Of a stretch of 64,000 nucleotides of DNA, positions 18,643-41,953 are shown piece after piece. The notes under the pieces were generated by a model that was not told where the DNA came from, did not search any database, and saw nothing but the letters and a program-made list of their open reading frames with translations. Positions within the stretch are counted from its first letter, which is position 1. Every line of letters begins with the position of its first letter. This stretch comes from a virus. The DNA lies in the IMG/VR virus record IMGVR_UViG_3300034111_000335, positions 1 through 64,000 of that record; one strand, 5' to 3'. The position numbers and the translations under genes were made by a program.

Positions 18643-18685
18643 TATATAGATTATATACATTGTTGGATAGTGAAAACAATAAAAA

Positions 18686-22108: not shown

Positions 22109-22109
22109 G

Positions 22110-25100: not shown

Positions 25101-28100
25101 TCTATGTCAATCAAGCTGTGGGACAACTACTTTAATAGTAGCGGATTAGGTGTAGACTACGGCTCTCTGTTGGATATCTATGGAAGAGGCGGTCACGTAC
25201 ATAGTCAGTTCTATATGGATGCAGGCGGAGGTTTATTCTACAGAATGTCACCATACGCTAGTGGATGGACTTCTTGGGCTTCAATATGGACTAGTAGTAG
25301 TTTGACTAACTTAAATCAGTTAACAAATGGTCCTGGTTACATTACATCTTCTGCATTAAGTGGCTATGCTACTCAAAGTTACGTAAACTCTCAGGGATTC
25401 TTAACCAGTGTACCTGCACAATCTCAACTCATAAGTCCTAATGGGGCAACTGTTGTTGCAGCAGATTCAGCAATGCCTAATGCAGGACATTCGTTTATAC
25501 ATAGTTTGGCTTTAGGTCCTGGTGGAAATGATGGTCACATACTTGGTATGTCTTGGGCAGGTACAACTAGTGTTTATGGTGCTCAGATTTTCTTAGACAC
25601 AGATCCTAATGACATCATGGCAATTAGGTCTAGAAGTAATGCTGGAGTTTGGACATCTTGGAAAACTGTTTATCATAATGGCAACTTTACTGATAATTCA
25701 TCAAATTGGAATACCGCATATAGTTGGGGTAACCACGCATCAGCTGGATACTTAACTTCTTTACCGTCCCATAACCATGACGATAGGTATTATACCGAAA
25801 CGGAATCTGATGGTAGATTCCAACCCTTAGAGAATCAAAGACTTTCTACTGGTAATTCCCCAACATTTGCAAATGTTTATGCTAGTGAGTGGTTTAGAAA
25901 CTATGGTAATCAGGGTATTTACAACCAAACATACGGAACTCACTTCTATTCACTTTCAAGTGGAGCTTGGGCTATTACAGGAAGTGGAGGTGCTGTTGAA
26001 ATTCAGTTTAGAAGTAACCACCAAAGTACTCTTCGTGGGTATGTTTATGCAGATACTAGCAACAACATTGGTTTCCTAAACAACGCAGGTAACTGGAGTT
26101 TGAGAACCGATTCTAGTAGAGATACTCAGATTTATGGAGCACTAACCGTAGGTAGTGGTACATCGGCTGATATTTATATGACAGATACGGATGAGACTAC
26201 TAGACGTATACACACAAACAGCGGTAGAATAGGATTTTTAAATTCTTCTAGTAACTGGGGAGCTTATTGTGATAATACTGGTAATTGGTTTAGTGATCAT
26301 TCTATGCGTGCTCCAATCTTTTATGACTCACAGGATACCAACTACTATGTAGACCCTAACAGTTTATCTAGACTTGGTACAATGCAGATTGATAGAATTG
26401 GTGTTGGACAAGCTGTAGACAACGGGTATAGAATCATTACATCTGGAGACATCTACCTTAATGCTAATGGTAATGGATGGGCTGAAGGTGTATGGAAACA
26501 ACGCAGAGGAGGTTCCACGTACTATGATGTAATTGACTCTGGAAACATCGGTAGTCAATCTGTAAACTATGCTGCAACTGCTGGATCTGCTCCTGCCAAT
26601 GGCGGTAACTCTAGTACAGTAGGCGGATTTGGTGCAGGATCTTTCTTTAGAGACCTTGGTTTTGAGGGCGGTGGTGCTAATGCAAATACTATTGCTGAAA
26701 CTAGATCAGCATTTACATATTCATCTGGTTCTCCATGGACTGGCCCTTTAGCGTATTTTGGTGCATCAGGTTATGGGTTACAACTAAACGCAACATATCA
26801 AAGCGGTGTTAATATTTCATACAGAACAAGAAATGGTGATAATGCAACGTGGAACTCGTGGAGAGAGTTTATTCACTCTGGCAACATTGGGTCTCAGTCT
26901 GTATCATACGCAAGTACGGCAGGTACTGCAAATGCAGTAGCATGGACTAACGTATCTAGCAGACCGACAGCTTTATCTCAATTTAGTAATGATTTGGGTA
27001 ACTATGGTGGCTTCTTAACTTCTTTACCTGCACATGATCATGATAGACTATTCTTAACAGATTCTAGAGGAGCGTCTAGAGCACCTTCTTACTACGATCA
27101 AAGATATGCTCAGTGGGATTTTCAGAATACCTCAGATACGGGTGCAGGAGGAGACGGTTGGCATGGTCTACTTACAGTAGCTAAATGGTCTTCTTATGAT
27201 CCTTCTCATAGACAAGAACAACTTGCTTTCACTGGTGATGAATTAAAACGTAGAACTGCTACAAGTGACTCTGCTTGGGGATCTTGGAAAACAATTATAG
27301 ATTCAGGAAACATTGGTAGTCAGTCAGTAAGTAATGCTGCAACTGTAGGTGGCTATACTCCTTCTGGTAGTGTAGGTGCAAACACAGTAGTTATCAGAGA
27401 TGCTAACAACTACATCTATGCTCACTACATTAACTCAAACGTATCTGAGTCTGAGAATCCAACTATTAACTCATTCTACACAAGTAATGGAGATGGTTGG
27501 TTAAGAAAGTCAAGTGTTGCTCACGTTAAGTCTCAGTTAGGATTAGGGTCTTTAGCTTATCTATCTAGTTTAAATGAATTGGATTGGTATGGGTATCTTA
27601 CAAGCGAGAACTGGAATACTTATTGGACTAGTAATAAACTAAGAGTTGCTTCAGTTTCTGGAGCTACAGGAACTGGTCGTCCCCCAACTAGTGTACATAA
27701 TTTTGGCAGTTTGCTTTCTTATGGGACTTCATCAGGAGACGCATTTCAAATGTATTTTCCTGACAATGCTGGTAACAGTATTGCTAACAGTAGAAAACTT
27801 CACTATAGAACTGGTCAGAGTGTTAGTGCTGGTCCTACTGGTAGTGGTTGGTGTGATTGGAGAACAGTTGTTGACATGGTGGGTGATACTTTAACTATTG
27901 TTGAAGGTGCTACTCCTAAAATTGTTGTCCGAGGATCAACAGGATATGGTAATCCATCATCAGGCTCTATTGAATTAGTAGGGGATGCAGATGGTGGAAA
28001 CACTCAGTCATACAGATGGATAAGTACTGCTCCTGATTGGGGTGGCCAAGAATTTAGACTAGAAAGAAAGGTTAATAACGCTTTTCAGCTTGTAGGAAGA

Positions 28101-28460
28101 GTTCCTAAAAACACCAATAACCTTGAGTGGCAAGGTACTATTGTACAAGGTTTATCTGACTCAAGAGTTAAGACTAATGTTGTTAGTATGACAGAGGGTC
28201 TTGACAAGATTGATCGGATTAGACCTGTAACATTTGATTGGGTACCTACTGAGAATGTATCTGATAGAGAAGGAGCAGACTTTGGTTTTATTGCTCAAGA
28301 ACTTGAAGAGGTATTACCAGAAGTAGTACATACTAGAGGTGATGGATACAAAACAGTTATGTACGAAAAAGTAGTACCTGTATTGGTTCAAGCAATGAAA
28401 GAACAGCAAGCAATTATTGAGGCTCTTAAGGCTGAGATAGAACTCCTAAAGAACAAGTAA
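22110..28460 (+). CDS. giant modular tail fibre with C-terminal peptidase S74 chaperone
   Basis: 2116 aa; IGSQSV seven times; HNHDDRYY twice; SDSRVKTN...RPVTFDW...GFIAQEL. Confidence 0.88.
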   Translation: MAILLTGTTIGGHSAIHAGNLATHGIVTTSNIGSYALTSLPSHNHDDRYYTESESDSRYLSINGGTVTGWALFTASTQGTAIVRATQQDTSAGYYLFQGITGSSEVFRVERSGRLNSAEYIYSYGYRGNGNVGGTGSASWHPDGAYIGSTMWQYGAQYKNNTGIYDVSEFKLNAGPTLSIYNSRNLSVRALDNNADVGILGQQSGGGFAFQIYGTGSSYGFLNGIWAAWDIRKAVNGAMYMNDNDSYYLQTNSTSNFVALNIQGNAVVHAGNIGSQSVSNSNHLNSTRDTPSGKLQYWDAPGLGIDEAPSGDWHNTIRMGHGSPLSYYSNTLAIRMTGSGVGDIYTQTIMNGNRQGWKKHWNDGNHGSGSGLDADLLDGQQGSYYQPASSAITTSNIGSQSVNFANSSTSAAYLNYTGVGGTQLNANTFSYGRASNYYSTAQILNSPENAYASLYNFGGDTPSALSLQLFASVNHNDTSSTRNLWFRVGNNLGFQNDWKQIIHSGSIGSQSVSYATTAGALSSMNISQFTNNSGYITGYTETDTLNSVTGRGNTTSNSVRFGNHVDLSPTGSAFRFYDGSTFRGGFGLDSWGHAGSDANLVLYVNGDNTLFFSTSGTKRAYINSASFYSFVAIKENGNQVLHAGNYTSYSPSLTGSGASGTWGINVTGTAARATRANGNFYIDDNYGNTIVGLYNSTILQGVFAMGDAYKLTAGGGAGNLYGLAWSHPNAGGVASNLNTHGLLVMENGTFLAAISGSIRARDDMRAPIFYDSNDTTYYLDPNSNSYLSTLRVANATSGVSLHVGLGSTHGVYTADNDRKYLVVSATYYPHMALVATSSNNSNHGAVFSFVGSESGAARQWNMGIANSNPFVFSIGYNRTGDNNPHYGIGDGWHGDDNHHARLSIDRDGNTKIRGMLYINGTSGGISTGSAVIHAGNIGSQSVSYASTAGALSSMNISQFSNNSGYFVSSTANTVSVNQIAFSTTNYDFTLAPRLSIGSMSIKLWDNYFNSSGLGVDYGSLLDIYGRGGHVHSQFYMDAGGGLFYRMSPYASGWTSWASIWTSSSLTNLNQLTNGPGYITSSALSGYATQSYVNSQGFLTSVPAQSQLISPNGATVVAADSAMPNAGHSFIHSLALGPGGNDGHILGMSWAGTTSVYGAQIFLDTDPNDIMAIRSRSNAGVWTSWKTVYHNGNFTDNSSNWNTAYSWGNHASAGYLTSLPSHNHDDRYYTETESDGRFQPLENQRLSTGNSPTFANVYASEWFRNYGNQGIYNQTYGTHFYSLSSGAWAITGSGGAVEIQFRSNHQSTLRGYVYADTSNNIGFLNNAGNWSLRTDSSRDTQIYGALTVGSGTSADIYMTDTDETTRRIHTNSGRIGFLNSSSNWGAYCDNTGNWFSDHSMRAPIFYDSQDTNYYVDPNSLSRLGTMQIDRIGVGQAVDNGYRIITSGDIYLNANGNGWAEGVWKQRRGGSTYYDVIDSGNIGSQSVNYAATAGSAPANGGNSSTVGGFGAGSFFRDLGFEGGGANANTIAETRSAFTYSSGSPWTGPLAYFGASGYGLQLNATYQSGVNISYRTRNGDNATWNSWREFIHSGNIGSQSVSYASTAGTANAVAWTNVSSRPTALSQFSNDLGNYGGFLTSLPAHDHDRLFLTDSRGASRAPSYYDQRYAQWDFQNTSDTGAGGDGWHGLLTVAKWSSYDPSHRQEQLAFTGDELKRRTATSDSAWGSWKTIIDSGNIGSQSVSNAATVGGYTPSGSVGANTVVIRDANNYIYAHYINSNVSESENPTINSFYTSNGDGWLRKSSVAHVKSQLGLGSLAYLSSLNELDWYGYLTSENWNTYWTSNKLRVASVSGATGTGRPPTSVHNFGSLLSYGTSSGDAFQMYFPDNAGNSIANSRKLHYRTGQSVSAGPTGSGWCDWRTVVDMVGDTLTIVEGATPKIVVRGSTGYGNPSSGSIELVGDADGGNTQSYRWISTAPDWGGQEFRLERKVNNAFQLVGRVPKNTNNLEWQGTIVQGLSDSRVKTNVVSMTEGLDKIDRIRPVTFDWVPTENVSDREGADFGFIAQELEEVLPEVVHTRGDGYKTVMYEKVVPVLVQAMKEQQAIIEALKAEIELLKNK

Positions 28461-28461
28461 C

Positions 28462-28491
28462 TTGACAATTTAACTAATAGCATTATATTTG
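28462..28491 (+). promoter_or_regulatory. Bacteroidota-type promoter
   Basis: TTGACA ... TATATTTG. Confidence 0.65.
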
Positions 28492-28526
28492 TAATGTATA
28501 CAATTTAAAATTATAATTTTACAACA

Positions 28527-29033
28527 ATGGCACTTAAAATCACAAAAAGCATTGGTACCGATAAAGGTATTACCAATGAAGCTTACGTACGTATTGCTGA
28601 CTACCAAATCTCTAAGAGTGGTAACGCTAACTTCCGTATTCAATTGTTCATGAGCGCTGCAGATGCAGTAGCTTCTCCTAACGCTATGGCTCCTATTGAC
28701 GGAGGTCAAGCACGTAACCAACAAATTGGTGAGTACTTGTCTATTCCTTTGACTAAGCAAGTTGAAGAGACTAAGACTCGCACTATGATGCAGCCTGTAC
28801 AGAAGGACGTAGTTAAGACTCGTACTATCACTAACGAAGCAGGTGAAGAAGTATCAGAAGAGTACACTGTACAAGAGTACGTAACTGAAGAAGTTACTGA
28901 AGAGTACACCGTTACTTTGACTATTCCTGATTTATCTTCTGCAGAAGGTGTTGACATTTTTGCATTCGGTTATACCCACTTGAAAGCTAAACTTGTCAGC
29001 TTATTTACTGCTGCTAAAGTAGAAGACTGCTAA
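28527..29033 (+). CDS. hypothetical protein (possible fibre-tip accessory protein)
   Basis: 168 aa ORF directly after the fibre genes. Confidence 0.7.
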   Translation: MALKITKSIGTDKGITNEAYVRIADYQISKSGNANFRIQLFMSAADAVASPNAMAPIDGGQARNQQIGEYLSIPLTKQVEETKTRTMMQPVQKDVVKTRTITNEAGEEVSEEYTVQEYVTEEVTEEYTVTLTIPDLSSAEGVDIFAFGYTHLKAKLVSLFTAAKVEDC

Positions 29034-29092
29034 TTTGGCAGATTCTACAGAAAAGCATTATATTTGCATAAACCAACTAAACAATATAAATC

Positions 29093-29392
29093 ATGGCAAC
29101 TAAATTAAACGAACAAGAGATCGAAGCAATCAAAGGCTTCCAACAAAAGACTCAAAACGTAATTATGGATTTGGGTAAGATCGAACTCCAGATGAATGAC
29201 TTGCTTTCTGTAAAAGAGAAAGTAAAGGAAGCAATGGCTGAAGTAGTAAAAGAACAGAATGAGTTCTTCCAATCTATTGAAGCTAACTACGGTAAAGGTC
29301 AGATTAATTTGGATACCTTTGAGCACATTGCTGCTGAAGCTCCTGCATCAGAAACCCCTGTAGTTCCTTTTACTCAGGCAGAAGTATTGTAA
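29093..29392 (+). CDS. coiled-coil protein (possible fibre assembly chaperone)
   Basis: Coiled coil ending YGKGQINLDT; preceded by TATATTTG at 29059. Confidence 0.7.
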   Translation: MATKLNEQEIEAIKGFQQKTQNVIMDLGKIELQMNDLLSVKEKVKEAMAEVVKEQNEFFQSIEANYGKGQINLDTFEHIAAEAPASETPVVPFTQAEVL

Positions 29393-29412
29393 TAATAACT
29401 ATTACGCAACAG

Positions 29413-29442
29413 AAACCCTCAGAGAAATCTGGGGGTTTTTTT
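29413..29442 (+). terminator. intrinsic terminator
   Basis: aaaccctcaga/tctgggggttt stem followed by a T-run. Confidence 0.7.
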
Positions 29443-29459
29443 GTTTAACTACTAACTAG

Positions 29460-29489
29460 TTGACTTATTTTTTTAAAGTTTTATCTTTG
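29460..29489 (+). promoter_or_regulatory. Bacteroidota-type promoter upstream of the lysis genes
   Basis: TTGACT ... TATCTTTG. Confidence 0.6.
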
Positions 29490-29669
29490 TCTCAACCAAC
29501 CTTTTCTCACCTAAAGTATAGTCTATGAAAGTCCGAAGTTGCTTTGAACATTCTATCAGATATCGTTCTTATGGTGAGTTTTTCTATATTCCTCACACTG
29601 CTGCTGTCTAAGTGGTTGCTAGAGGATTACGGGATTTTACTATTAACCAAACTAAAAAAAGGTAACTAT

Positions 29670-29918
29670 ATGAAATTTTTAAACTTTATCGGAGGCCTCT
29701 TCAAAGATGAGAAGGGTGTTGTCTCTATGAAACGTCTGTGTGGCTTAGCATGCACAGTGACTTTATGCGCTACATTGTACGCTAACTCTTTTACCGAAGC
29801 ACACTTTGCTCCTTCTGTTCCTTTAGTGGATGCAGTTGCATTACTTGCATTTGGTTGTTTAGGTTTGACTTCTGTTGAGAAAATCATGAAGAAGCCAGAA
29901 GCACCTAGCGAAGATTAA
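29670..29918 (+). CDS. putative holin (two TM; start reassigned to MKFLNF)
   Basis: SMKRL motif with two hydrophobic helices; directly upstream of the endolysin. Confidence 0.65.
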   Translation: MKFLNFIGGLFKDEKGVVSMKRLCGLACTVTLCATLYANSFTEAHFAPSVPLVDAVALLAFGCLGLTSVEKIMKKPEAPSED

Positions 29919-29945
29919 TTTACTATAAACTATAAACTATAAACT

Positions 29946-30533
29946 ATGAGCTACACTAGAGAACAAATCGAAGCTGCTATGAAAGCCAAAGGCTACAAGT
30001 ACTTTGAGAACGGTGACTTTAACGTAAACATTATTGGAGTACGTAACTCTTCTACTGGTACTAAAGTAACCAACGTATTTGACGATCACTTGACTCTTTC
30101 TTACAAAGAAAACGGTGAGTGGAAATTTAAGATCTGGCCTGCTACTACTGATCCTGGAACTAAGGGTGTTAAAGAATTCCACAACGCTGCTGGAGTTGCT
30201 CGCTTAGTACCTGGTCAATACTCAGGTTCACACCATGTAGGATTACACCAAGGTAAGTACGAAGCTTTGAAACAGAAAGCAAACGTAAAGGTTTACCGTG
30301 ATGCTAACAAAGACATGAACTATGATGAATCTAAGATACAAGAAGGCATTTTCGGTATTAACATTCACAAGGCTGGTGCAGATTCTACTTACGTGGAGAA
30401 CTGGAGTGAGGGTTGCCAAGTGTTCAAGAAGTCTGCGGACTTTGATGCATTCATGGTTATCTGTAAGAAGGCTGCTGCATTAGGTGGTAACTCTTTTACC
30501 TACACTCTTATCGAGTCTAAAGATATTAAGTAA
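29946..30533 (+). CDS. putative endolysin with an L,D-transpeptidase-like His/Cys motif
   Basis: IIGVR, TTDPG, PGQY, GINIH...WSEGCQV (H...SxGC). Confidence 0.7.
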   Translation: MSYTREQIEAAMKAKGYKYFENGDFNVNIIGVRNSSTGTKVTNVFDDHLTLSYKENGEWKFKIWPATTDPGTKGVKEFHNAAGVARLVPGQYSGSHHVGLHQGKYEALKQKANVKVYRDANKDMNYDESKIQEGIFGINIHKAGADSTYVENWSEGCQVFKKSADFDAFMVICKKAAALGGNSFTYTLIESKDIK

Positions 30534-30995
30534 ATGAGAGGACTTCTCGTAAGTCTTTTTTTGATTCTCTCTATCCCCTGTTCTTCACAGATTAAAGTTC
30601 TGAAGGCAGGGGATGGTTGGGACTTAAAGGTGGACTCTGCCTTAAGCTTAATCGCACAAACAGATGTCAACACGTATACTAGAGTGATAGATGTCGTAGA
30701 CATCATAGACTTTTGGATAAGTCCTTATTCCTCTAACAACGTCTCTCAAGATGGTAACGTAATCTACATTGCTACAGGAGACATAAAGATTAACTCAATA
30801 CCTAACCTAGCTTGTGTTATAGTACACGAAAGTCTTCACTTATACTACAGATTGCATCCAGTAGAACAATCAGATAGTGAAGAGGAACTTAAGTGTTATA
30901 TCTACGAGGTAGGCTTTATAAATAAACTACCAACCCCTGAGCCATGGTTACTGGCAAACGCAATAGAACAGATACACAAACTAAATAAAAAATGA
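30534..30995 (+). CDS. secreted zincin-like metallopeptidase
   Basis: Signal peptide; VIVHESLH with downstream EE..CY. Confidence 0.7.
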   Translation: MRGLLVSLFLILSIPCSSQIKVLKAGDGWDLKVDSALSLIAQTDVNTYTRVIDVVDIIDFWISPYSSNNVSQDGNVIYIATGDIKINSIPNLACVIVHESLHLYYRLHPVEQSDSEEELKCYIYEVGFINKLPTPEPWLLANAIEQIHKLNKK

Positions 30996-32890
30996 ATAAA
31001 CTATTTAAAGTTATCATCGGGGTGTTGACATTGTTGGTTGGCAATGCATCAGCACAATCTTCTGCTACTTCCCCAGGTACAGGTCATTGGGTCGTAATTG
31101 ACTCTGGTTACCAAGTTGCTACCACTACTGCAGGGCAGACAGTAGCACCTTTACATTTCTATAACACTTCTACTTCAGAGAAGATCACTGGTATGCAATT
31201 CCGTGTATTCTACGATAACACTGCATTCACTGCTGTAGTTCCTTCTTTGAAGATCTCTACTACAGATCAGTATCTTCAGTACGTAGATAGTAACTCACAA
31301 GGATTCTTGACAGTAACTTTAGCTTACACTGGATCTAGTTCTACTTACAACTACTCTAACGGAGCTACCTTTGATTTAACTTTCACGCACGCAGGAAGCT
31401 CAACATGGAATACTTTAGATTCTATTAAAACTTTGAAAGTTGCAGGTGTTAAATCATTTGCTAACAAAGCTGCTACTAACTGGGGTAACGATACTACATT
31501 GGTAGTTTACTCTTATGGTGGTCGTTTCAACCAAAAAGTATTAAGATTTGCTGCTAAGTTTAAAAACGTAACAGGTTCTGACGCTAAGAACTTGTGGGTG
31601 TCTTTAGAGAAGAAAGCTCCTTCAGGATCTTGGACTCAAGTAGAAGCTAAATCAACTAACTCTAGTGGTGTTGTAGTATTCCGTAAATTCTTGGATACTA
31701 CTTACTGGGACGTACGTATGGTAGTTAAGGGAGATACAATGACTCCTGGTAACGTATTCTCTACTGCAGATGCACAAAAGATCAATCAATCTATCTTAGC
31801 TCAATACACTCCTTCTGGATTTGACTACTACACAATGGATGTAAACAACACTGATGGTTCTATTACTATTGCTGACGTATACTCTGTGTACGGACGTTTA
31901 GCAGGTAGATTCTCAGCTTGGCCTAACTCTAAGAAAGATGTAATGTTCTTCACAGTTGCTGAATACAATGCTATCAACGGATCAGCTACTAACTTAACTG
32001 CTACTTACTCTACTATTAACAACTTTGATTACACTATTGATGGTCGTGATTCTATCACTTACTACGTAGCTGTTAAAGGAGATGCTAACTCTACAGGATT
32101 TAAGATGGCTCGTTTGACTCCTATCAAGATTACTAACCCAGCTAATGCTAAGCGTTACATCATTGATGAGACTGTAAGTTATGATTTCCCTGCAGAAACT
32201 ATTGAGATTAACATGCCTAAAGTAACTGTAGATGAAGGTAACTTAGTTAACGTTCCTGTTAAAGTTCTTACAGATGGCAAGCAGTTGGGTGCACTTCAAT
32301 TAGACTTACGTTATGATACTGCTTACTTAGAGTTTAAGAAAGTAGAGAACACTGAAAAGATGATGAAGTGGACTTCTTACTTAAACCCTTCTAACGGTAC
32401 AGTATCTTGGGGAGCAGCTGACTTAACTAACGAAAACTTCTTAAATGATGGAGAGCAAGTATTTACCCTTCAGTTTATTGCTAAGAAGCCACAAGACTCT
32501 TGGGCTACTGCAGCTTTATGGACTGGTGCTAAATACGTAGGTGATGCTAAGTCTAAAGACATGAACATTACTCCTGCTATGGGTATCATAGAAGTACGTA
32601 GGATTAACAAAGGAGTTGTTTCTTTAAATGATCTTAACTCTATTATCGTATTCCCTAATCCTACAGATGGAGCAGTACAGATCCAATTCCAGATCAAACA
32701 AGATGCTGACGTAGACGTAGCTATCTCTGATGAGGTAGGAAGACGCATACAAACGATCCTAAGAGAGAAAATGCCTGCAGGTAAGTACAAGTATAGTACT
32801 AACCTAGATCGTCTCTCTAATGGCGTCTATGTGCTTACTGTTGTAACAGAGCATGAGACCTTACATTCTAAAATTATCGTAACTAAATAA
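30992..32890 (+). CDS. cohesin/dockerin-like protein with T9SS type A C-terminal sorting domain
   Basis: Signal peptide; cohesin-like GMQFRVFYD and VNVPVKV...GALQLDLRYD; dockerin-like DVNNTDGSITIAD; C-terminal VFPNPT...LSNGVYVL...KIIVTK. Confidence 0.82.
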   Translation: MNKLFKVIIGVLTLLVGNASAQSSATSPGTGHWVVIDSGYQVATTTAGQTVAPLHFYNTSTSEKITGMQFRVFYDNTAFTAVVPSLKISTTDQYLQYVDSNSQGFLTVTLAYTGSSSTYNYSNGATFDLTFTHAGSSTWNTLDSIKTLKVAGVKSFANKAATNWGNDTTLVVYSYGGRFNQKVLRFAAKFKNVTGSDAKNLWVSLEKKAPSGSWTQVEAKSTNSSGVVVFRKFLDTTYWDVRMVVKGDTMTPGNVFSTADAQKINQSILAQYTPSGFDYYTMDVNNTDGSITIADVYSVYGRLAGRFSAWPNSKKDVMFFTVAEYNAINGSATNLTATYSTINNFDYTIDGRDSITYYVAVKGDANSTGFKMARLTPIKITNPANAKRYIIDETVSYDFPAETIEINMPKVTVDEGNLVNVPVKVLTDGKQLGALQLDLRYDTAYLEFKKVENTEKMMKWTSYLNPSNGTVSWGAADLTNENFLNDGEQVFTLQFIAKKPQDSWATAALWTGAKYVGDAKSKDMNITPAMGIIEVRRINKGVVSLNDLNSIIVFPNPTDGAVQIQFQIKQDADVDVAISDEVGRRIQTILREKMPAGKYKYSTNLDRLSNGVYVLTVVTEHETLHSKIIVTK

Positions 32891-32894
32891 AACT

Positions 32895-33245
32895 ATGAAC
32901 ATTAAAAAAACGCTTGGTTTTAGTCAAGCAGAACCAGTCCCAGTAGATCCTAAGAATAGATTCTATTACATGCTGCAGCAAATGCAGGCTAATCGTTGGA
33001 AGATTACAGCTATCGTATTAGGTTTGTTCTTCTTTATTATTCTTGGTATTAACTCTGCAGTATTTTTTGGAATAGAAATCCAAGAGAACTGGAAAGAGAT
33101 GTTACTTATTCTTTTTGGTGCCTTTGTAGGTAACTTAAACAAGGTAGTTGACTACTGGTTTAACTCAGAAGACCGTGACAAAATGTTAATTCAGAAGGTC
33201 GATGAAGAGGACGGTGAATCATTATCTAACCCAAATAACTCCTAA
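32895..33245 (+). CDS. two-TM membrane protein
   Basis: Two hydrophobic helices, VVDYWF. Confidence 0.75.
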   Translation: MNIKKTLGFSQAEPVPVDPKNRFYYMLQQMQANRWKITAIVLGLFFFIILGINSAVFFGIEIQENWKEMLLILFGAFVGNLNKVVDYWFNSEDRDKMLIQKVDEEDGESLSNPNNS

Positions 33246-33249
33246 TACT

Positions 33250-33570
33250 ATGTCAGAAGAACAAGAAGAAAGCGTAATGTCTGCTACTAAGAAAGCAATC
33301 ATTGGCGCAGTCACCACTGCTGTAACTGCAGGAGGTGCATGGTTTGCTACTCAATTCGGTGGCGGTGAAGAACCTAAAGAAGAGGCTAAAACAGAACAAG
33401 CTGCTCAGCCTGTAATTAACGTTAACCTAGAGAACAACAATACTAACCAACAGAAGCAATCTAGCGGAGGTACTAACACAATCATCAAAGAACGTGTAAT
33501 TGAAAAACCTGCTGCTCAACCTGCTGCTCCTGCAACCAAACCCCAAGCTGATGAAGAAGATCCTTGGTAA
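33250..33570 (+). CDS. small membrane-associated protein (start reassigned to MSEEQ)
   Basis: AIIGAVTTAVTAGGAWF helix followed by a low-complexity tail. Confidence 0.7.
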   Translation: MSEEQEESVMSATKKAIIGAVTTAVTAGGAWFATQFGGGEEPKEEAKTEQAAQPVINVNLENNNTNQQKQSSGGTNTIIKERVIEKPAAQPAAPATKPQADEEDPW

Positions 33571-34252
33571 GTCGCTTAACAGACTTTGGTTAGTCTTACT
33601 ATTAATGGGTTGTGGTTCTATGAAGACTACTACCGAGGAAGATAAAGTAGAGGTGAAAGACATCTCTACTGTATCTAACTATACAGATTCTATTAAAAAA
33701 ACAGTACAAGTAGTAAGCGTGGATATGACTAAAGTTTTAAGTTTGTATCCTGCTTTGCAAGAGAAGAATGTAGGTCTAGGATTTGCTGAGTCTGTACTTG
33801 ATTATTTGGATGAAACAAACAGATTTATATTCACAGAAGAGAAGTCAGAGATCAAAGAAAGAATGGTCACACAATTCAAAGCATCAAAGAAAGGCGTATT
33901 TGATGAGCCTGTTGATGGAAAAGGTAAGATTAAACCTGCTCACTACTTTGTTTACGTTACTGTGGCTGATTTTGCTGTTGATGAAGACGAGCAAGTTGAT
34001 GGCCTTAAGTCAAAGGTTGTGGTTACTACCTTCATCCGTTTACAGGTCCGCTTTGTGGATGCTAAAACAGGTCAGATCTATATTGGATCTGGTGAAGGTG
34101 AATCTACAAAGACAGGCGAATCTTTCTTAAAGTCTTTAGACGATATGAAGTTTTCTCAAAGCACAGTAGGTAAAGCTACCCGTAAATCTCTTGAAACTGC
34201 TTGTACTAATGTGATCCAAAATCTCATTAAGTCAGGTGTATTTAAAAACTAA
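33551..34252 (+). CDS. CsgG-like (curli transport family) lipoprotein
   Basis: Lipobox LLLMGC; RFIFTE...YFVYVTVADF...LQVRFVDAKTGQI..GSGEG pattern. Confidence 0.72.
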   Translation: MKKILGKSLNRLWLVLLLMGCGSMKTTTEEDKVEVKDISTVSNYTDSIKKTVQVVSVDMTKVLSLYPALQEKNVGLGFAESVLDYLDETNRFIFTEEKSEIKERMVTQFKASKKGVFDEPVDGKGKIKPAHYFVYVTVADFAVDEDEQVDGLKSKVVVTTFIRLQVRFVDAKTGQIYIGSGEGESTKTGESFLKSLDDMKFSQSTVGKATRKSLETACTNVIQNLIKSGVFKN

Positions 34253-35696
34253 GCTTTTTACTTTATTAGTGATTATAGCTCTGTCCGTAAATGGGCAGAG
34301 CTTTATCTATTCATACACAGATCCTTGCACACAGGAGCTAAAATTTATTAATGCTGACATGTCCAGTCCTATAGTAATTGCTTACTATGGACAGGTTAAA
34401 ACATTCTCTTATACAGAATTACAAGATGGAACGTTTGATAATTGGATAAATAGTGTATATTTGAAGTATCAAAATACATCACCCTGTCAAGGAGTTGGAG
34501 TAACTACTACTACAACTACCACAACAAATACGACTCTAAACATTGTAAGCAATGTAATGAACTTAGGGGCTATTTCAAATGTAGGTAGTGTAAATGTAGA
34601 CGTAGGATCTAGCACCTCTTCAGGAACTAACGTAGGAACAACCAATAAAACAAACAATAATGACAGCAGAACTAATTCTCGGAATCGTACTAGTAGCAGC
34701 TCTAGTAATTCTAATTCTTCTAGCAGCTCGTCAGGAGAAACTGGAAGCAGCAGCAATGGAGGAAATGCACCAGAAAATCAAAGCGGGAATACCGACAACG
34801 GAAATCCCGGAAGTAGTGGTAGCAGCGGAGAAGGTAATGGAGGAAGCAGTGGCTCCAGCTCCAGTGGAAACTCCAGTGGTAGTGGAAGCAGTAGTGGAAG
34901 CTCCAAAGGTGGAGGAAGTGGTGGCGGAGGTAAAACCGAAGAAAAAACGGAAGTACAAGAAGAAAAACCCTCCGACCAACAAGTAGAAGAAACTAAGACT
35001 GAGCAACAAAAGTCTCAGTCTAGTGGTACTGCGAAAGCAGCCAATAAAGCTAAAGCCGAAGTTGCTAAGCCCGCAATATTAGTAACTGGTGATTTAGTTG
35101 GTATTCAGACTAAGTCTGATGGAGCACAAGATGCAAGAGGTACTGCCTCCTTTACAAGAGTAAAAGGAGATGGTACTTCTTCTCTTGGGTTTTCAGCTGA
35201 TTACATGCTTAATGCTAGAATCGGTAATATCTCGTGCGTACGCTCGTGGATAGGAGCAAATAAAAAAGGCAACAAACACATTAGTGTTGTATCAGATGGT
35301 CTAAGTCTGATGCCTAAATCAATATCAAATACACTCTTGTTTGTAAGAGTAAACTCAGTTAAGAACTTTACAGCACTTTACGGAGCAGCTGGAACCTATG
35401 GTAAGTTATTTGGAGAAGAGATGATTTCTACAATTGCTATAGGTGGATTTATGTACAAGGGAAAACTTACTAAGAATATAGATGCTACAATTATTGCAGC
35501 AGGAATCTATTCTCCCTACTCTAAATATTATACAGAGTCTTTATTTGAAGCTAAGCCTATTGTAATTCCTTTCTTTAACTTTACCTACAAAATGACCAAG
35601 ACTTTTGGCTTAGGTATTACAGGAGGGGGAACTTACGTAGCAGGACAAGATATCCTAAACTTTCAAATCTTAATGGGAGCTAAGCTATTGATATGA
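34236..35696 (+). CDS. secreted protein with Ser/Gly-rich linker and putative C-terminal beta-barrel
   Basis: Signal peptide; T/S/G-rich middle; amphipathic beta-strand pattern in the last ~200 aa. Confidence 0.65.
   Translation: MYLKTKLFTLLVIIALSVNGQSFIYSYTDPCTQELKFINADMSSPIVIAYYGQVKTFSYTELQDGTFDNWINSVYLKYQNTSPCQGVGVTTTTTTTTNTTLNIVSNVMNLGAISNVGSVNVDVGSSTSSGTNVGTTNKTNNNDSRTNSRNRTSSSSSNSNSSSSSSGETGSSSNGGNAPENQSGNTDNGNPGSSGSSGEGNGGSSGSSSSGNSSGSGSSSGSSKGGGSGGGGKTEEKTEVQEEKPSDQQVEETKTEQQKSQSSGTAKAANKAKAEVAKPAILVTGDLVGIQTKSDGAQDARGTASFTRVKGDGTSSLGFSADYMLNARIGNISCVRSWIGANKKGNKHISVVSDGLSLMPKSISNTLLFVRVNSVKNFTALYGAAGTYGKLFGEEMISTIAIGGFMYKGKLTKNIDATIIAAGIYSPYSKYYTESLFEAKPIVIPFFNFTYKMTKTFGLGITGGGTYVAGQDILNFQILMGAKLLI
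34660..34986 (+). CDS. nested alternative-frame gene encoding a single-TM protein with a basic C-terminus
   Basis: A-rich leader aaaacaaacaata before ATG; TM helix, E/V/A/P-rich stalk, KPKKKRKYKKK tail. Confidence 0.6.
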   Translation: MTAELILGIVLVAALVILILLAARQEKLEAAAMEEMHQKIKAGIPTTEIPEVVVAAEKVMEEAVAPAPVETPVVVEAVVEAPKVEEVVAEVKPKKKRKYKKKNPPTNK

Positions 35697-36844
35697 GGTG
35701 GATCATTGTTTTACTCTTCTTTGTGAACTCACTGAGTGCACAATTCACTTACTCAGGATATATGTACAGTGCTAATGGAGGTGCTGCTATAAACGTTCCT
35801 GTGAAGCTTTATAAAAGAACAACAACTACTACAGGAAATAACTCTACTACAGTAAAGGTTTATAGAACTCATAATGGAACTGGTGCTACCACACAGTACT
35901 CTACTTATCCTTCTACGAGATCAGAAATGGATAGGTGTTTTAACACAAGTTACTCCCACACTAGTTTGTGGTCAACAACTACAATGTCAGGTAACTCTTC
36001 TTTAAATTTTGGAACTTATAGTACATTAACTTCTGCAGGTGCTAGTGTTCCTAGTAGTGGGGATTACTATGCTACAGAAGTAAGTTTTACTTTTACCCCT
36101 GCAGAAACTGGCACCTATTCTTTTGGTATGACTTCTGATGATGGATCAGATCTGTGGTTAGTAAATACAGGAAGTATTATTGAATACTATGGAGGTAAAG
36201 GAGTAGGTACTTACAAATACGGTAGTGTGAGTTTAACCGCAGGTACTTCTTATACGTTTATTGCACGCATGCAAGAATACTCTGGCGGAGATGGATTATA
36301 TCTTATCTGGAGAAGACCTTCTCAATCTGCACATTCTTATCAATCCTCTGAAGTAGGGACAGTAACTACTACAACTTCTTCTTGGACTTTAGATGCTACA
36401 GCCTATACTAACTCTTCAGGATACTATGCTTTCTCTAGAACCACTACTGCAAGTACACAATGGTATATACAAGTAGATGTACCTACAAGAATTCAGGCTT
36501 ACACTAGCACAGATATTCAAACAGTATCTAATATTATCTTAGGTAAGTCTACAGTCAATGGATTATCTTATCACAGATTTGATGTTAATGATGACGGAAG
36601 ATTAAACATTGCAGACAAATACTATGTAGCTGCTAGGAAGTCAGGAAGATTTACTAGATGGAGGTTAGCCTCTGATGTAAGAATATTTACAGCTGCTCAG
36701 TACAATACAATCTCTTCTTCTACTGGTAATGTGCGTACTACATATCCAGGAGTAGCTACCTTCTCAACTTCTACTTTAACTAGTGGAGGAACTTTAAATC
36801 TATATCTAATAGCTCCTGGATACTCTGGAGCAGTAACTTACTAA
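35693..36844 (+). CDS. secreted PA14-domain protein with a dockerin-like motif
   Basis: Signal peptide; GTYSFGMTSDDGSDLW (PA14); FDVNDDGRLNIAD. Confidence 0.78.
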   Translation: MRWIIVLLFFVNSLSAQFTYSGYMYSANGGAAINVPVKLYKRTTTTTGNNSTTVKVYRTHNGTGATTQYSTYPSTRSEMDRCFNTSYSHTSLWSTTTMSGNSSLNFGTYSTLTSAGASVPSSGDYYATEVSFTFTPAETGTYSFGMTSDDGSDLWLVNTGSIIEYYGGKGVGTYKYGSVSLTAGTSYTFIARMQEYSGGDGLYLIWRRPSQSAHSYQSSEVGTVTTTTSSWTLDATAYTNSSGYYAFSRTTTASTQWYIQVDVPTRIQAYTSTDIQTVSNIILGKSTVNGLSYHRFDVNDDGRLNIADKYYVAARKSGRFTRWRLASDVRIFTAAQYNTISSSTGNVRTTYPGVATFSTSTLTSGGTLNLYLIAPGYSGAVTY

Positions 36845-36845
36845 C

Positions 36846-37292
36846 ATGAAAAAACTATTTATACTTTCCGCTTTAGTCATTATGATGACTTCTCTGAGTG
36901 CTCAATGCTACAAAGTTGACACTGTAACTTCAATTGCTTCTGTAACAGAGATAGGAGGAAGACCTATTATCTTCGGAGCACAGACAACTCTAGAAGAGAT
37001 CGCTTCTTCAAAGTACCAATTATGTAATGAGGGCAGTCCTATTTCAGGAGAAATCAAATCCATTGCTATGCCTGAGCAACTCTTAAACATTGTAGGCTTA
37101 CAGTTTCTTAAGCGTGAGTACATTGTAATTACACAGATCAATGTCAATGGAACTGTTGTAACAGGAGAAGCAAAGAAGATTGTCTATGTAAATGCAATGT
37201 TTGTTTCTGTAGAAGGGATTCCTCACAACAGAAAAGCTTACTCTAAGGCCTTGGAGAAGTCGTTTAAGAATGGATTTGAAAACTTGAAATAG
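36846..37292 (+). CDS. secreted hypothetical protein
   Basis: MKKLFIL...SAQ signal peptide. Confidence 0.72.
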   Translation: MKKLFILSALVIMMTSLSAQCYKVDTVTSIASVTEIGGRPIIFGAQTTLEEIASSKYQLCNEGSPISGEIKSIAMPEQLLNIVGLQFLKREYIVITQINVNGTVVTGEAKKIVYVNAMFVSVEGIPHNRKAYSKALEKSFKNGFENLK

Positions 37293-37370
37293 GATAATAT
37301 CCTTCTCAAATGAGAAGTTGTCTATTTTGACTTTCTATTCTAACTTATATTACAGCAGTTTTTAACCAAA

Positions 37371-37571
37371 TAGCTCTCGGAGCTAAGTCTCTGTTCTGTC
37401 CACTTATTGCCTACGGTCTATTAGTTGTAGGTCAGAGCACTGTAAACTTCGTAAGAACATTTCGACACTATCGGAGAAACCTCTTTTCACCTCTGAGGGC
37501 TACTCATACTATCCGACTTCTAGCAGATTACTTTCTAATCCTCATCTGCGAACACTAAGAAGTGGTGTCAG
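37371..37571 (-). ncRNA. candidate ~200-nt structured RNA with its own promoter
   Basis: TACATTTG -7 element at 37576-37583; nested stems GACAC/GUGUC, ACUUCU/AGAAGU, GCAGAU/AUCUGC, UCGGA/UCCGA, GUUCU/AGAAC, CCUAC/GUAGG, UAGCU/AGCUA. Confidence 0.55.
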
Positions 37572-37632
37572 TCTACAAATGTAATAGCATTTGTAGGTCA
37601 GAAGTCTGGTGTGTTGAAAATTTGTGGATTTT

Positions 37633-37905
37633 TTAGAGTCCTGCAGCCTGCTGACCCTTTAGATAATCAGTCTGTTGCATTGGAGGATCATCGTCTACAA
37701 GAGAGTCCATAGCCATTTCTATGTATTCCCACAACATTTCTTCTGTGTATCTCTTTCTGTAGGTAAAGTCTTTGAAGCCTTCGTACAAAGCATTTTTAAA
37801 TCCTTCTATATCCCCTGCTATCTTAATCTCTTCGTCTTGCAAGGCTAAAAGGAATATGTCAAACACTTCCTGAGCTGTGGGTTTTTTAATCTTTTCCATC
37901 GACAT
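37633..37905 (-). CDS. hypothetical protein
   Basis: ORF preceded by minus-strand TATATTTG at 37926-37933; start reassigned. Confidence 0.65.
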   Translation of the reverse strand: MSMEKIKKPTAQEVFDIFLLALQDEEIKIAGDIEGFKNALYEGFKDFTYRKRYTEEMLWEYIEMAMDSLVDDDPPMQQTDYLKGQQAAGL

Positions 37906-38015
37906 AGCAGTGTTTTTAAGTAACACAAATATAAGTTTAAATCTTTTTTTGTCTATAGTGTTTGTCTAATACTTATAAACTGTGAAAATAATTATCTAGA
38001 TTAAGAATTTGCTTA

Positions 38016-38094
38016 ACACGTGTAATATAAAATGTTACACGTGTCTTTAGACTTAACATTTAACTTGACTTTTTTTGCTATAATGGTATATTTG
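38016..38094 (+). promoter_or_regulatory. inverted-repeat operator candidate plus promoter of the packaging operon
   Basis: acacgtgtaa-N9-ttacacgtgt; TTGACT ... TATATTTG. Confidence 0.55.
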
Positions 38095-38118
38095 TTTAAG
38101 TAAAAACAAACCAAACCA

Positions 38119-38475
38119 ATGAAAGTAGCACGTAGATATGAAGAAGGAGTCAAGTTACATCAAGCATATATTGATGTATTACTTAGACTTGCAGGGTATA
38201 GATTGTCAGATCTATACACTAGTATATTAGCCCATAGTTCTTACTACGGTACTTTAGACAAGGAAGTAAAAGAAAGAATCGCAAGTGAGTTTAGCACATC
38301 AGTCCAAGTAATTTCTAACGGGATTACTAGACTAAGAAAAATGGGCATCTTAGAAAAAAACACAGTCAACAGAAGATTGTGTCCTACTAGCAAGCAAGAT
38401 GTTACACTCACTTTGATTCTTTCTACAGGAGAAACTAAAAAGGTAGAACCCCAGTTGGAAGCTGCACAAGCATGA
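38119..38475 (+). CDS. winged helix-turn-helix DNA-binding protein
   Basis: RIASEFSTSVQVISNGITRLRKMGIL. Confidence 0.65.
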   Translation: MKVARRYEEGVKLHQAYIDVLLRLAGYRLSDLYTSILAHSSYYGTLDKEVKERIASEFSTSVQVISNGITRLRKMGILEKNTVNRRLCPTSKQDVTLTLILSTGETKKVEPQLEAAQA

Positions 38476-39026
38476 GAACTGTAAAGGATAAATACGACAA
38501 CATCGAAATAAAAACCTACGCAGCTTACTCCGAGGTTGCTAAGGAAATGGATATGACTATAGACCAAGTAAGCACGGTCTACGAGTGGTATCTTAAAAAA
38601 ACCATCGAAGAGATCAAAGAGCTACCCACAGTTAAAGTAAGATTGTCTGGATTAGGAGTTCTAGTATTTAATCCTAACAAGGCAATGAAGACTATAGCTA
38701 CTAAACTTAAGTCTGAAACTTTGCTTACAGATTCTCCTAGAGAAGATCTTACAGCACTCAGAGGATATAATAACTACTACTTGCTAGAGAACTGGATTAA
38801 GTTATTTGAAGACAGATATGAAAGAGGAAAATCTAAAAAACTATACGCACCTGTAGTAGTTGATTACTTTGATAGAACTCTTATAACCTTAAAACAAAAC
38901 CACAAAAAATTATATGAATCCTTACAAAGAGTACATGGCCCTGAGCCTGAAGGGTCTAAAGAATTTGAACAAAGTACTGGAGGGAGTGGCAACGAAGACA
39001 GCGAACCAATTCAAACTATTGAATAA
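38472..39026 (+). CDS. HU/IHF-like DNA-binding protein
   Basis: EVAKEMDMTIDQV...VRLSGLGVL pattern. Confidence 0.6.
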   Translation: MRTVKDKYDNIEIKTYAAYSEVAKEMDMTIDQVSTVYEWYLKKTIEEIKELPTVKVRLSGLGVLVFNPNKAMKTIATKLKSETLLTDSPREDLTALRGYNNYYLLENWIKLFEDRYERGKSKKLYAPVVVDYFDRTLITLKQNHKKLYESLQRVHGPEPEGSKEFEQSTGGSGNEDSEPIQTIE

Positions 39027-39288
39027 TGAAAAACAGAACATTATCGCAGAGCGAATGGATATTTGTCTCAAGTGTCCCTACAATTCAACAAACGCAGTAT
39101 CTTCCCCTGAGTACTTACAACTCACGGGCGAACACTACAGCACTACCAGGTCAGAACTACACTGTTCGTTTTGTGGGTGTATCTGCACCTTCAAAACAGC
39201 ATCTCTATCTTCGAATTGTGGAGTAGAGAGTTGGAACGCATCTAAACCAGATAAACAAATAGAACTATTATGGCACAAAGTAGAGTAA
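38914..39288 (+). CDS. Zn-ribbon (CxxC) protein
   Basis: RMDICLKCP, HCSFCGC...K..S...C. Confidence 0.7.
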   Translation: MNPYKEYMALSLKGLKNLNKVLEGVATKTANQFKLLNNEKQNIIAERMDICLKCPYNSTNAVSSPEYLQLTGEHYSTTRSELHCSFCGCICTFKTASLSSNCGVESWNASKPDKQIELLWHKVE

Positions 39289-39401
39289 AGAAACTCACAA
39301 TCAAGAATGGTTGTGACAAGAAACCAGGAAGTAAGTGTGGAGTACAGATTTACTTCTTGCCTGCTGACAAACCTTTAACACAGGTTTCTTCTAAAAAATA
39401 A
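39270..39401 (+). CDS. 43-aa basic hypothetical protein
   Basis: Manual translation MAQSRVKKLTIKNGCDKK...; fills the gap in the operon. Confidence 0.45.
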   Translation: MAQSRVKKLTIKNGCDKKPGSKCGVQIYFLPADKPLTQVSSKK

Positions 39402-39405
39402 GATT

Positions 39406-39612
39406 ATGGAAAACCACCAAGCCCCTAGTCAGCAACCCTACGTATCTAAGACTTTACAGGATAACTTATTCGAGACGTTTAAGATTTTCTGGAAAGCAGG
39501 ATACTCGTACGGAAAGACTGGAAGAGATGAAGACTTCTATGCACGTGTTCTTGAAGACATCATGAACATGAACCAGTCAGACTTCTTAAAAAAATACAAC
39601 AATGGCAACTAA
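39406..39612 (+). CDS. hypothetical protein
   Basis: 68 aa ORF. Confidence 0.6.
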   Translation: MENHQAPSQQPYVSKTLQDNLFETFKIFWKAGYSYGKTGRDEDFYARVLEDIMNMNQSDFLKKYNNGN

Positions 39613-39919
39613 AAAACTATCCTATATATCAGCAGAACTTGAATGGGCAGAACAACGCTTAACTGAGTGGAGAGCATATATAGATAACAATCCTATCAAT
39701 GGATTGAAAGACAGAATTGAATGGAAGCCTACAGCCAAAGGAGGAACAATGCCTATGGTTATTGCTAGCCAAGAATCACAAATCAAATCTCTTAGAGATA
39801 CTATGAAAGAATACTTAGCTTTACTTGAAGTAGTAGATCGTCTTAGAGAGAAAGAAGAACAAAAAGCAGAAGCCCGTGGATCTCAAGAGATTAACGGTAA
39901 GATGAAACAATTTAGTTAA
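39602..39919 (+). CDS. hypothetical protein, possibly terminase small subunit
   Basis: Helical protein coupled to the terminase large subunit gene. Confidence 0.55.
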   Translation: MATKKLSYISAELEWAEQRLTEWRAYIDNNPINGLKDRIEWKPTAKGGTMPMVIASQESQIKSLRDTMKEYLALLEVVDRLREKEEQKAEARGSQEINGKMKQFS

Positions 39920-41931: not shown

Positions 41932-41953
41932 CTAAAACTAAATAACAAATACA

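Follow-up and report, generated by a model that had tools for sequence, protein, structure and literature searches.

A phage-borne gene block with a T9SS-tagged cohesin scaffold, dockerin-like modules, exchangeable heads and a CsgG-fold lipoprotein: a putative lectin display on infected Flavobacterium-type hosts

Positions 30,534 to 37,292 of the IMG/VR virus record IMGVR_UViG_3300034111_000335 carry eight genes, g1 to g8, and raise a simple question: for what would a phage need cohesins, dockerin-like modules, a type IX secretion system (T9SS) sorting domain and a CsgG-fold lipoprotein, all in one block directly after its endolysin-like gene? The DNA analyzed, hereafter the window, is a stretch of 64,000 nucleotides of this record. 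The preferred answer, with a probability of about one in two, is that the block is a mobile accessory cassette whose products would assemble, within the outer envelope of an infected Flavobacterium-type host, into a small lectin display resembling a cellulosome. The list of parts in a preliminary description of this DNA is upheld: a T9SS-tagged protein with two cohesins, a lectin-headed partner that shares its dockerin-like module, and a lipoprotein of CsgG fold. As a whole, its observations are partly confirmed, and its interpretation is plausible and partly supported, strengthened by the comparative data.

The eight open reading frames (ORFs) are all present on one strand (Table 1), joined by overlaps of 4–20 nucleotides or separated by gaps of 1–4 nucleotides. 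The tight coupling of the genes and the endolysin-like match (in the PHROG database) thus stand as first described, while the so-called holin is a small hydrophobic protein without a family match. In a Pfam scan of ten proteins, seven returned no family at E ≤ 0.1. Export leaders were judged from N-terminal hydrophobic stretches and the lipobox, and not by a signal-peptide predictor; g2, g4, g5 and g7 lie below the crude hydropathy threshold used for leaders.

The scaffold of the putative display is g2. Both of its cohesins score above the Pfam cut-off (24.5 and 42.6 vs. 24.1 bits), and its C-terminal domain is recognized as a T9SS type A sorting domain by the Por_Secre_tail profile (43.2 bits, cut-off 27) and by TIGR04183 (36.9 bits, cut-off 23), as had been proposed. 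A count over the whole genome gives two cohesins, both in g2, two dockerin-like modules, one in g2 and one in g7, and a single sorting domain, in g2. Exactly one sorting domain is also present in each of three other records examined, always on the cohesin protein. Relatives of g2 were found at 80 viral loci, with 57–99% identity. Two cohesins and two modules per genome fit a docked, exchangeable binding module.

The calcium loops reported for g2 (DVNNTDGSITIAD) and g7 (DVNDDGRLNIAD) are both present, each as part of a longer shared module of 125 residues (residues 222–346 of g2 vs. 239–358 of g7; 36% identity, E 2e-16). The order within the module is a beta-sandwich-like stretch, a conserved helix-like stretch (TADAQxxNQxIL) and one EF-hand-type loop. 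The module alignment contains 16 copies, from nine proteins at the g7 position and seven g2 orthologues (29–78% identity to the first row), and the D, N and D of the loop are invariant in all 16. Against the PDB, the module profile retrieves seven sequences at E ≤ 10, five of which are dockerin-bearing cellulosomal chains (4wi0_B at E 0.0035, 4u3s_B, 2ccl_B, 4uyp_B and 2y3n_B); the matches are weak, with E values of 0.0035 to 3.4. In the two best matches, presumably X-module-dockerin dyads, the alignment takes in both the beta-sandwich part and the loop. Dockerin_1 itself appears below its threshold, at 14.3–15.5 bits, in four of nine other g7-position proteins, hence in five of ten including g7. 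The module is dockerin-like, probably a relative of the X-module-dockerin pair, and falls outside Dockerin_1; its binding to cohesins is putative.

In g7, the module forms the tail of a protein with a PA14 head (PF07691, 25.4 bits over residues 129–214, cut-off 24; 32.9 bits in the 384-residue orthologue of locus L064). The protein has no T9SS sorting domain, the only one in the whole-genome search being that of g2, in agreement with the preliminary description. At this position of the block, the tail is constant and the head is not. The C-terminal module is 57–100% identical to that of g7 (33–36% in the GEVED forms), whereas the heads at 56 loci comprise 23 C-type lectins, 21 of no recognized family, nine PA14 and three GEVED domains. 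Each type comes with its own protein length: PA14 in forms of 383/384 residues, C-type lectin (PF00059, E 1e-17 and 3e-18) in forms of 327 residues and GEVED (PF20009, E 3e-14 and 1e-13) in forms of 356/357 residues; the head of the 397–401-residue forms, the 400-residue type, has no Pfam or PDB match. Even g2 proteins 85–87% identical to that of the window are accompanied by other heads, of the 400-residue type at L015 and of the lectin type at L024-L027. Head swapping on a constant tail also fits a docked, exchangeable binding module. At a further locus, L004, g7 is 100% identical to that of the window and the best tail-fiber segment just 59% identical; hence, the head type is not strictly tied to the tail fiber.

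In the preferred reading, all products would enter the envelope by the Sec pathway, as the leaders, lipobox and membrane helices visible in the sequence suggest. The host T9SS would carry g2 over the outer membrane by means of its type A sorting domain, and g2 would stay there as surface anchor and adaptor. The two cohesins of g2 would then be occupied by the dockerin-like modules of g2 and g7, in a chain that probably runs from the surface anchor with cohesin 2, to the g2 module with cohesin 1, to the g7 module with its head, and the exchangeable head would bind a glycan or another surface ligand. The scheme is less simple than the scaffold docking one partner that was first proposed, since g2 also bears a dockerin-like module.

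The same heads allow a reading in favor of the host, in which surface lectins fasten the infected cell to polysaccharide of algae or particles, with more resources for phage production as the result and no phage-phage or phage-receptor role. PA14, C-type lectin and GEVED domains would suit such a task, as would the freshwater and lake distribution and the habit of Flavobacteria, which are particle-associated polymer degraders. This is quite improbable, however: Pfam and NCBIfam scans reveal no enzyme domain in the block, and the rapid swapping of heads among near-identical phages is more like the tracking of a variable cell-surface ligand.

In Flavobacterium, type A cargo of the T9SS is in many cases set free and not kept at the surface. 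With g2 released in this way, or by lysis, a soluble cohesin-lectin complex could coat virions, host debris or particles, and it may stick progeny to particles of polysaccharide or cover decoy receptors. Lectin-type heads are suited to particle binding, and contigs from RNA libraries of four studies, which span parts of g2–g6, are compatible with transcription of the block, although such libraries may contain DNA, so that transcription is unproven, and stretches without contig cover carry no meaning. Release instead of display is nevertheless improbable, as the virion proteins contain neither cohesin nor dockerin-like module, all of these being in g2 and g7, and the conserved membrane parts g4, g5 and g6 favor an envelope-bound machine. 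A role in the virion was also considered as the main explanation and rejected, given that cohesins and modules occur only in g2 and g7 and that all products have export or membrane signals.

The conserved unit takes in more genes than scaffold and head. With g2 as the query against IMG/VR, 95 of 99 pattern matches proved to be relatives, and 80 were kept; gene order was counted wherever 7.5 kb or more followed the start of g2, which was the case at 56 loci. At all 56, the genes g2, g4, g5, g6, a module-bearing g7-position protein and g8 follow in the same order. The block is common in freshwater phages. Two genes, g1 (found at 50 of 54 loci) and g3 (48 of 56), are outside this conserved core and are both missing from the phage described next; they would be lineage-specific additions.

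Among 50,697 GenBank phage records, g5, g2 and the C-domain of g6 have matches in only four, all of them records of Flavobacterium phage vB_FspM_immuto (immuto), a cultured phage of 160 kb (genus Immutovirus) that infects Flavobacterium sp. LMO8. The scaffold of immuto is split in two genes (Table 1), and gp015, gp014 and gp013 correspond, by their domains, to anchor, adaptor and cargo. The immuto block is surrounded by nuclease and nucleotide-metabolism genes, with an endolysin ~6 kb downstream. A third lineage, of eight viral loci, was reached by a g5 relative of 37% identity. It starts with a PF11351 holin, followed by a protein of 937–992 residues whose C-terminus matches residues 404–632 of g2, including the sorting domain; next come two small genes, the counterparts of g5, of g6 (here lacking the linker) and of g8, and then a capsid gene. 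In a complete phage of 176 kb (L070), the block is located after the DNA polymerase and GroES/GroEL genes; the latter lie just upstream, at L070:5443-7348 (GroES phrog_3188, E 9e-14; GroEL phrog_5725, E 6e-144).

The co-occurrence that the preliminary description asked for is thus seen at 56 of 56 related loci and in two unrelated phage lineages, in comparison with one locus among the species-representative bacterial genomes (185,579 genomes). That locus, L083, is a 16.5-kb contig of a metagenome-assembled genome labeled Sphingomonadaceae. With homologues of the holin, the endolysin and g1–g7, it is probably a phage contig misbinned into the bacterial genome. Since unrelated phage lineages share the block and the lone locus in a bacterial genome is phage-like, the comparison indicates a phage-borne, horizontally mobile module, the one known host of which is a Flavobacterium. 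Insertions occur as well. The gap between g3 and g4 exceeds 300 nucleotides in 11 loci with both genes and measures ~1.5–2.2 kb in nine of them. At L007:10478-11565 and L026:11107-12194, it is filled by two genes for DUF2589 proteins (at L007 with E 2.5e-30 and 2.9e-13) and an 86-residue ORF, an unrelated insertion inside the block that is absent from the window.

The most conserved part of the core is g5, with 81–92% identity to nine aligned orthologue representatives and a cysteine (C21) that is invariant in the lipobox LLMGC, followed by GS. Sequence searches with the single protein and with close orthologues returned zero families, and a profile of ten orthologues found nothing in the PDB. 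A HMMER scan of 1.84 billion representatives yielded 168 relatives at E ≤ 0.001, and the family alignment (A3) was made of g5 and 47 of the longer ones, mostly 200–250 residues. In this alignment, 21 of the 48 proteins match Pfam CsgG (best E 1.9e-25) and nine match LpoB; g5 itself matches neither. The profile of the family aligns with CsgG of Escherichia coli at E 3.1e-5, over positions 1–179. One divergent relative (P0140), used as a query, found zero viral loci.

An AlphaFold2 model of g5 from alignment A3 reached a predicted local distance difference test (pLDDT) score of 83.5 and a predicted template-modeling (pTM) score of 0.76, whereas an earlier model from ten close orthologues was unusable (pLDDT 39.9). 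The long strands of the A3-based model comprise residues 132–150, 153–170 and 176–191, the first two of which form a long hairpin. In a Foldseek search of the PDB, CsgG was on top (4uv3_A, E 1.3e-7, template-modeling score ~0.5). VIA-align gave Z scores of 13.0–13.7 to eight CsgG entries over 170–192 residues (at the top Z of 13.7, a root-mean-square deviation of 5.1 over 174 residues), with Cj1090c at 10.9 and LptE, PelC and FlgT at 9–10 as the best structures beyond CsgG. The best BFVD match is a protein named CsgG of an uncultured phage (E 1.3e-8), and the ESM feature neighbors agree with this assignment. With the E. coli protein (4uv3, 4uv2, 6si7 and others), g5 thus has in common the lipobox, the overall fold and, in the profile alignment, the YP of the loop that forms the channel constriction. 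Families of CsgE, CsgF, CsgA and CsgB were not detected in ten block-region proteins at E ≤ 0.1. The 'CsgG-like' label of the preliminary description consequently holds at the level of fold and through intermediates, and not by a direct Pfam match. The model supports a CsgG fold and distant CsgG homology for g5, with a ring or pore as putative function.

Around g5, the core contains three exported or membrane proteins. In g4, a C-terminal Trp is invariant in an alignment of 15 sequences that includes immuto gp016. After its leader, g6 has an 85-residue domain with two invariant Cys, a 189-residue linker rich in S, G, T and N and a 209-residue C-domain that is kept across all three lineages; both immuto and the third lineage have Phe as the C-terminal residue. 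This layout recalls an autotransporter, by analogy with which g6 is a putative beta-barrel. ESM neighbors of g6 include the KdgM/OmpL and Tsx/OmpK porins (0.94), a lead only, as just 126–141 features are shared. The full-length profile of g6 has low-complexity chance matches alone, and a word-based search recovered merely fragments (identity at least 60%). For g8, a Pfam scan is without matches. In the proposed mechanism, g4, g5, g6 and g8 would form a sub-assembly around the putatively ring-forming CsgG-fold lipoprotein, either as an outer-membrane passage for parts without a sorting domain or as an anchoring of the assembly. The untagged partners could cross by the g5 ring or together with g2 through the T9SS translocon, which is wide. 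A strong terminator-like hairpin of 11 pairs, six of them G-C, is located at 34277-34302, within the first codons of g6 and right after the end of g5; it could split the block into the units g1–g5 and g6–g8.

In one of the two lineage-specific genes, g1, seven residues (H98, E99, S100, H102, E117, E118 and C121) are invariant in 20 orthologues. The protein has no match in Pfam, PHROG, NCBIfam or the PDB, and none of the 120 relatives listed is assigned to a Pfam family or named informatively; the putative assignment as a peptidase comes from the HESxH motif alone.

Several observations weigh against a display of this kind. The first cohesin of g2 is marginal, at 24.5 bits against a cut-off of 24.1. 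The module contains one clear calcium-type loop, and not the duplicated pair of classical dockerins, and Dockerin_1 (PF00404) never reaches its Pfam cut-off of 22.9 bits (17.0 bits for g7, unlisted for g2), so that the dockerin-like loops first reported are present without family recognition. Pfam CsgG (PF03783) does not match g5 at E ≤ 0.1, nor at E ≤ 10 in a six-frame search of the genome. Identity of g5 to E. coli CsgG is ~12–16%, its hairpin region is shorter by profile alignment, and the tip of this hairpin (D144-E145-D146-E147) is invariant and acidic, and thus hard to fit in lipid. Profiles of the g6 C-domain have no PDB or Pfam match that would indicate a barrel, and a crude measure of beta-amphipathicity gives 4, compared to 2.8 ± 1.5 in shuffled sequences (141 of 500 reach 4); the immuto counterpart is likewise not above its shuffles. 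Finally, 39 of 54 close loci have homologues of the holin-like and endolysin-like genes upstream of g2, and the block of the third lineage also follows a lysis gene, so that a role in lysis is conceivable.

Such a role, the main rival of the display, would be that of an accessory at the outer membrane when infection ends, in which g4 and g5 form a spanin-like bridge, or the CsgG-fold protein a pore for the timing of lysis; cohesins and lectin heads would then be secondary. Pfam and PHROG scans and the ORF list reveal no recognizable spanin pair beside the endolysin. The genes g4 and g5, with features of a membrane protein and a lipoprotein, overlap by 20 nucleotides (7 in the immuto pair), and the gene that precedes the g5 counterpart of the third lineage has weak coiled-coil-type matches alone. 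However, with 233 residues and a CsgG fold, g5 is unlike the short outer-membrane spanins, g1–g3 intervene between the g4/g5 pair and the endolysin, and cohesins, a sorting domain and swappable lectin heads are of no obvious use in membrane fusion. The placement after lysis genes, correctly described for this genome, is not universal either, in view of the other contexts in immuto and the 176-kb phage. A role in timing has been put forward for CsgG and CsgF of other phages, Melnitz and the pelagimyophages (PMC9004378). On balance, lysis as the main task of the block is unlikely.

For the preferred reading, a lectin display on the infected cell, three purposes may be envisaged, in this order of preference: to hold neighboring host cells or particles near the infected cell, to mask the receptor against superinfection or to aid the breakdown of the outer membrane at lysis. 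A bolder and tentative version sees the block as a self-contained mobile machine that re-dresses the infected cell: the CsgG-fold ring and an autotransporter-like stalk protein would export or anchor the untagged partners, the T9SS would plant the cohesin scaffold, and lectin heads would serve 'sibling capture' or receptor masking. It is a similarly doubtful thought, within that version, that the swapping of heads tracks host surface-glycan diversity as the swapping of tail fibers does.

Each kind of part has precedents, and what is new here is their combination; phage T9SS cargo and phage CsgG are already in print. The likeness to cellulosomes consists of the cohesins above the Pfam cut-off, of the beta-sandwich and EF-hand-loop module, best matched by cellulosomal scaffoldin and dockerin chains, and of the anchor, adaptor and cargo layout in the split scaffold of immuto. 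On the other hand, the present system is encoded by Bacteroidota phages, with a T9SS sorting domain as anchor instead of an S-layer homology (SLH) domain or a sortase signal, and with a lectin-type head as cargo instead of an enzyme; its module has one clear loop, is under the Pfam cut-off, and its binding is putative. The 76-kb Bacteroidota phage 'Cryophage' (Bellas et al. 2020, PMC7468147) has type A T9SS cargo, including a PA14 protein. Its cargo genes vary among near-identical phages, for which the authors suggest a change of the host surface or superinfection exclusion (PMC7468147). Each Cryophage cargo, as presented there, bears its own sorting domain, whereas here one tagged scaffold would serve untagged partners; the main text of that paper contains none of the words 'cohesin', 'dockerin' and 'CsgG'. 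As GenBank phage matches of g2, g5 and g6 are those of immuto only, it is worth adding that the inclusion of the Cryophage record among the 50,697 is unconfirmed.

Pelagimyophages and the Methylophilales phage Melnitz carry CsgG and CsgF without curli fiber genes (Buchholz et al. 2022, PMC9004378); besides their own proposal of lysis timing, the authors cite 'sibling capture' and the uptake of macromolecules as earlier ideas. The common point is that a phage devoid of curli fiber genes carries a lipoprotein of the CsgG family. The hosts of these phages are Proteobacteria, and their CsgG and CsgF are recognizable; in contrast, Pfam CsgG misses g5, the present block has no detected CsgF or CsgE, and its g5 goes together with genes for cohesin, lectin, g6 and g8. 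In a full-text literature search, with most subscription journals outside its scope, no description of the block was found.

If the display exists, abundant freshwater Bacteroidota phages would use cohesin-dockerin chemistry and the host T9SS to place swappable binding heads on infected cells. This would be a new route by which lytic phages alter host aggregation, particle attachment or superinfection, as well as a second diversifying locus besides the tail fibers and the first functional setting for the unexplained phage CsgG homologues. Direct testing is feasible, because the cultured pair of immuto and Flavobacterium sp. LMO8 bears the block.

Table 1. Features of the block and its surroundings in the window, with the immuto counterparts.
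Feature	Position	Strand	Remarks
g1, 153-residue exported protein	30534..30995	+	HESxH...EE...C motif; putative small zinc metallopeptidase; lineage-specific extra
g2, 632-residue scaffold	30992..32890	+	leader, cohesin 1, dockerin-like module, cohesin 2, T9SS type A sorting domain
g2 cohesin 1	31124..31480	+	residues ~45-163; PF00963 24.5-24.8 bits, cut-off 24.1
g2 dockerin-like module	31610..32089	+	residues ~207-365; beta-sandwich segment, then one EF-hand-like loop and helix; located by module profile
g2 cohesin 2	32204..32572	+	residues ~405-527; PF00963 42.4-42.6 bits
g2 T9SS type A C-terminal sorting domain	32648..32881	+	residues 553-630; PF18962 43-46 bits, TIGR04183 36.9 bits
g3, 116-residue membrane protein	32895..33245	+	hydrophobic at ~residues 32-63; weak family matches; lineage-specific extra
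g4, initial ORF	33202-33570	+	start moved to 33250 by orthologue alignment
g4, 106-residue bitopic membrane protein	33250..33570	+	MSEE N-terminus, Gly/Ala/Thr-rich helix, low-complexity tail; core
g5, initial ORF	33500-34252	+	start moved to 33551 by orthologue alignment (MKK...LLMGC)
g5, 233-residue lipoprotein, CsgG fold (model-supported)	33551..34252	+	lipobox LLMGC; most conserved core part
g6, 486-residue exported protein	34236..35696	+	N-domain 34296-34499, linker 34500-35066, C-domain 35067-35693; core
g7, 383-residue exported protein	35693..36844	+	PA14 head ~36077-36334; dockerin-like tail 36368-36829; core position
g8, 148-residue exported protein	36846..37292	+	unknown fold; alignment of 24 orthologues; core
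Three very large tail-fiber-type proteins (1304, 1140 and 2116 residues)	14728-28460		consecutive, upstream of the block; each with a tail PHROG
Holin-like small membrane protein, 82 residues from an internal ATG	probably 29670..29918	+	hydrophobic segments; context, not core
Endolysin-like protein, 195 residues	29946..30533	+	phrog_3000 E 3.1e-38; phrog_33083 'endolysin' E 2.2e-12; context
immuto gp013			C-type lectin and module; counterpart of g7; E 1e-28
immuto gp014			cohesin 1 and module, without sorting domain; g2 residues 1-371; E 4e-51
immuto gp015			cohesin 2 and sorting domain; g2 residues 387-629; E 3e-23
immuto gp016			counterpart of g4; E 1e-11
immuto gp017			counterpart of g5, 43% identity; E 5e-57
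immuto gp018			counterpart of g6; E 3e-41
immuto gp019			counterpart of g8; E 2e-14

The source record is a virus of 118,886 bp with direct terminal repeats, rated 100% complete, and the window is its first 64 kb; a bacterial origin of the window is thereby ruled out. The virus is a crAss-like phage, presumably with Flavobacterium-type hosts, from lake water, and near-identical DNA is present in 14 freshwater or lake DNA runs, all of which contain 0.77 or more of the sampled words; five are flagged as its possible sources. The genes downstream of the block encode a crAss-type large terminase (39919-41931; phrog_6681, E 6e-97), a portal protein and a major head protein. The closest cultured relatives of the terminase are those of Leptolyngbya phage Lbo-JY46 (39.6%), of Cellulophaga phages phi4:1 and phi17:2 (29.7%) and of gut crAss-like phages. 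The first of these infects a cyanobacterium, Leptolyngbya, and is ahead of the Bacteroidota phages (~30%); Lbo-JY46 has no g2, g5 or g6 match. A DNA search of GenBank phages with the window gave a single match, of 94 nucleotides, to crAss002.

Upstream, the holin-like protein has zero Pfam or PHROG matches; an 82-residue ORF of the contig L083 aligns with residues 43–124 of the holin-like ORF. The endolysin-like protein is without a match in the Pfam scan. A promoter scan found 25 candidates, compared to 25.2 in shuffled sequences, with models that exclude Bacteroidota promoters. Between the tail fibers and the lysis genes lies a gene of unknown function (168 residues, window positions 28527-29033). 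The bin 28404-29004 has the top contig depth in three of four RNA libraries (35, 31 and 4 vs. 0–16 elsewhere, in 30 bins over 26000-44000), a mere hint of an abundant transcript, as genes are not rankable by contig depth. A second strong terminator-like hairpin, of 13 pairs with a T run, is located at 29411-29440, between a 99-residue gene and the holin-like gene.

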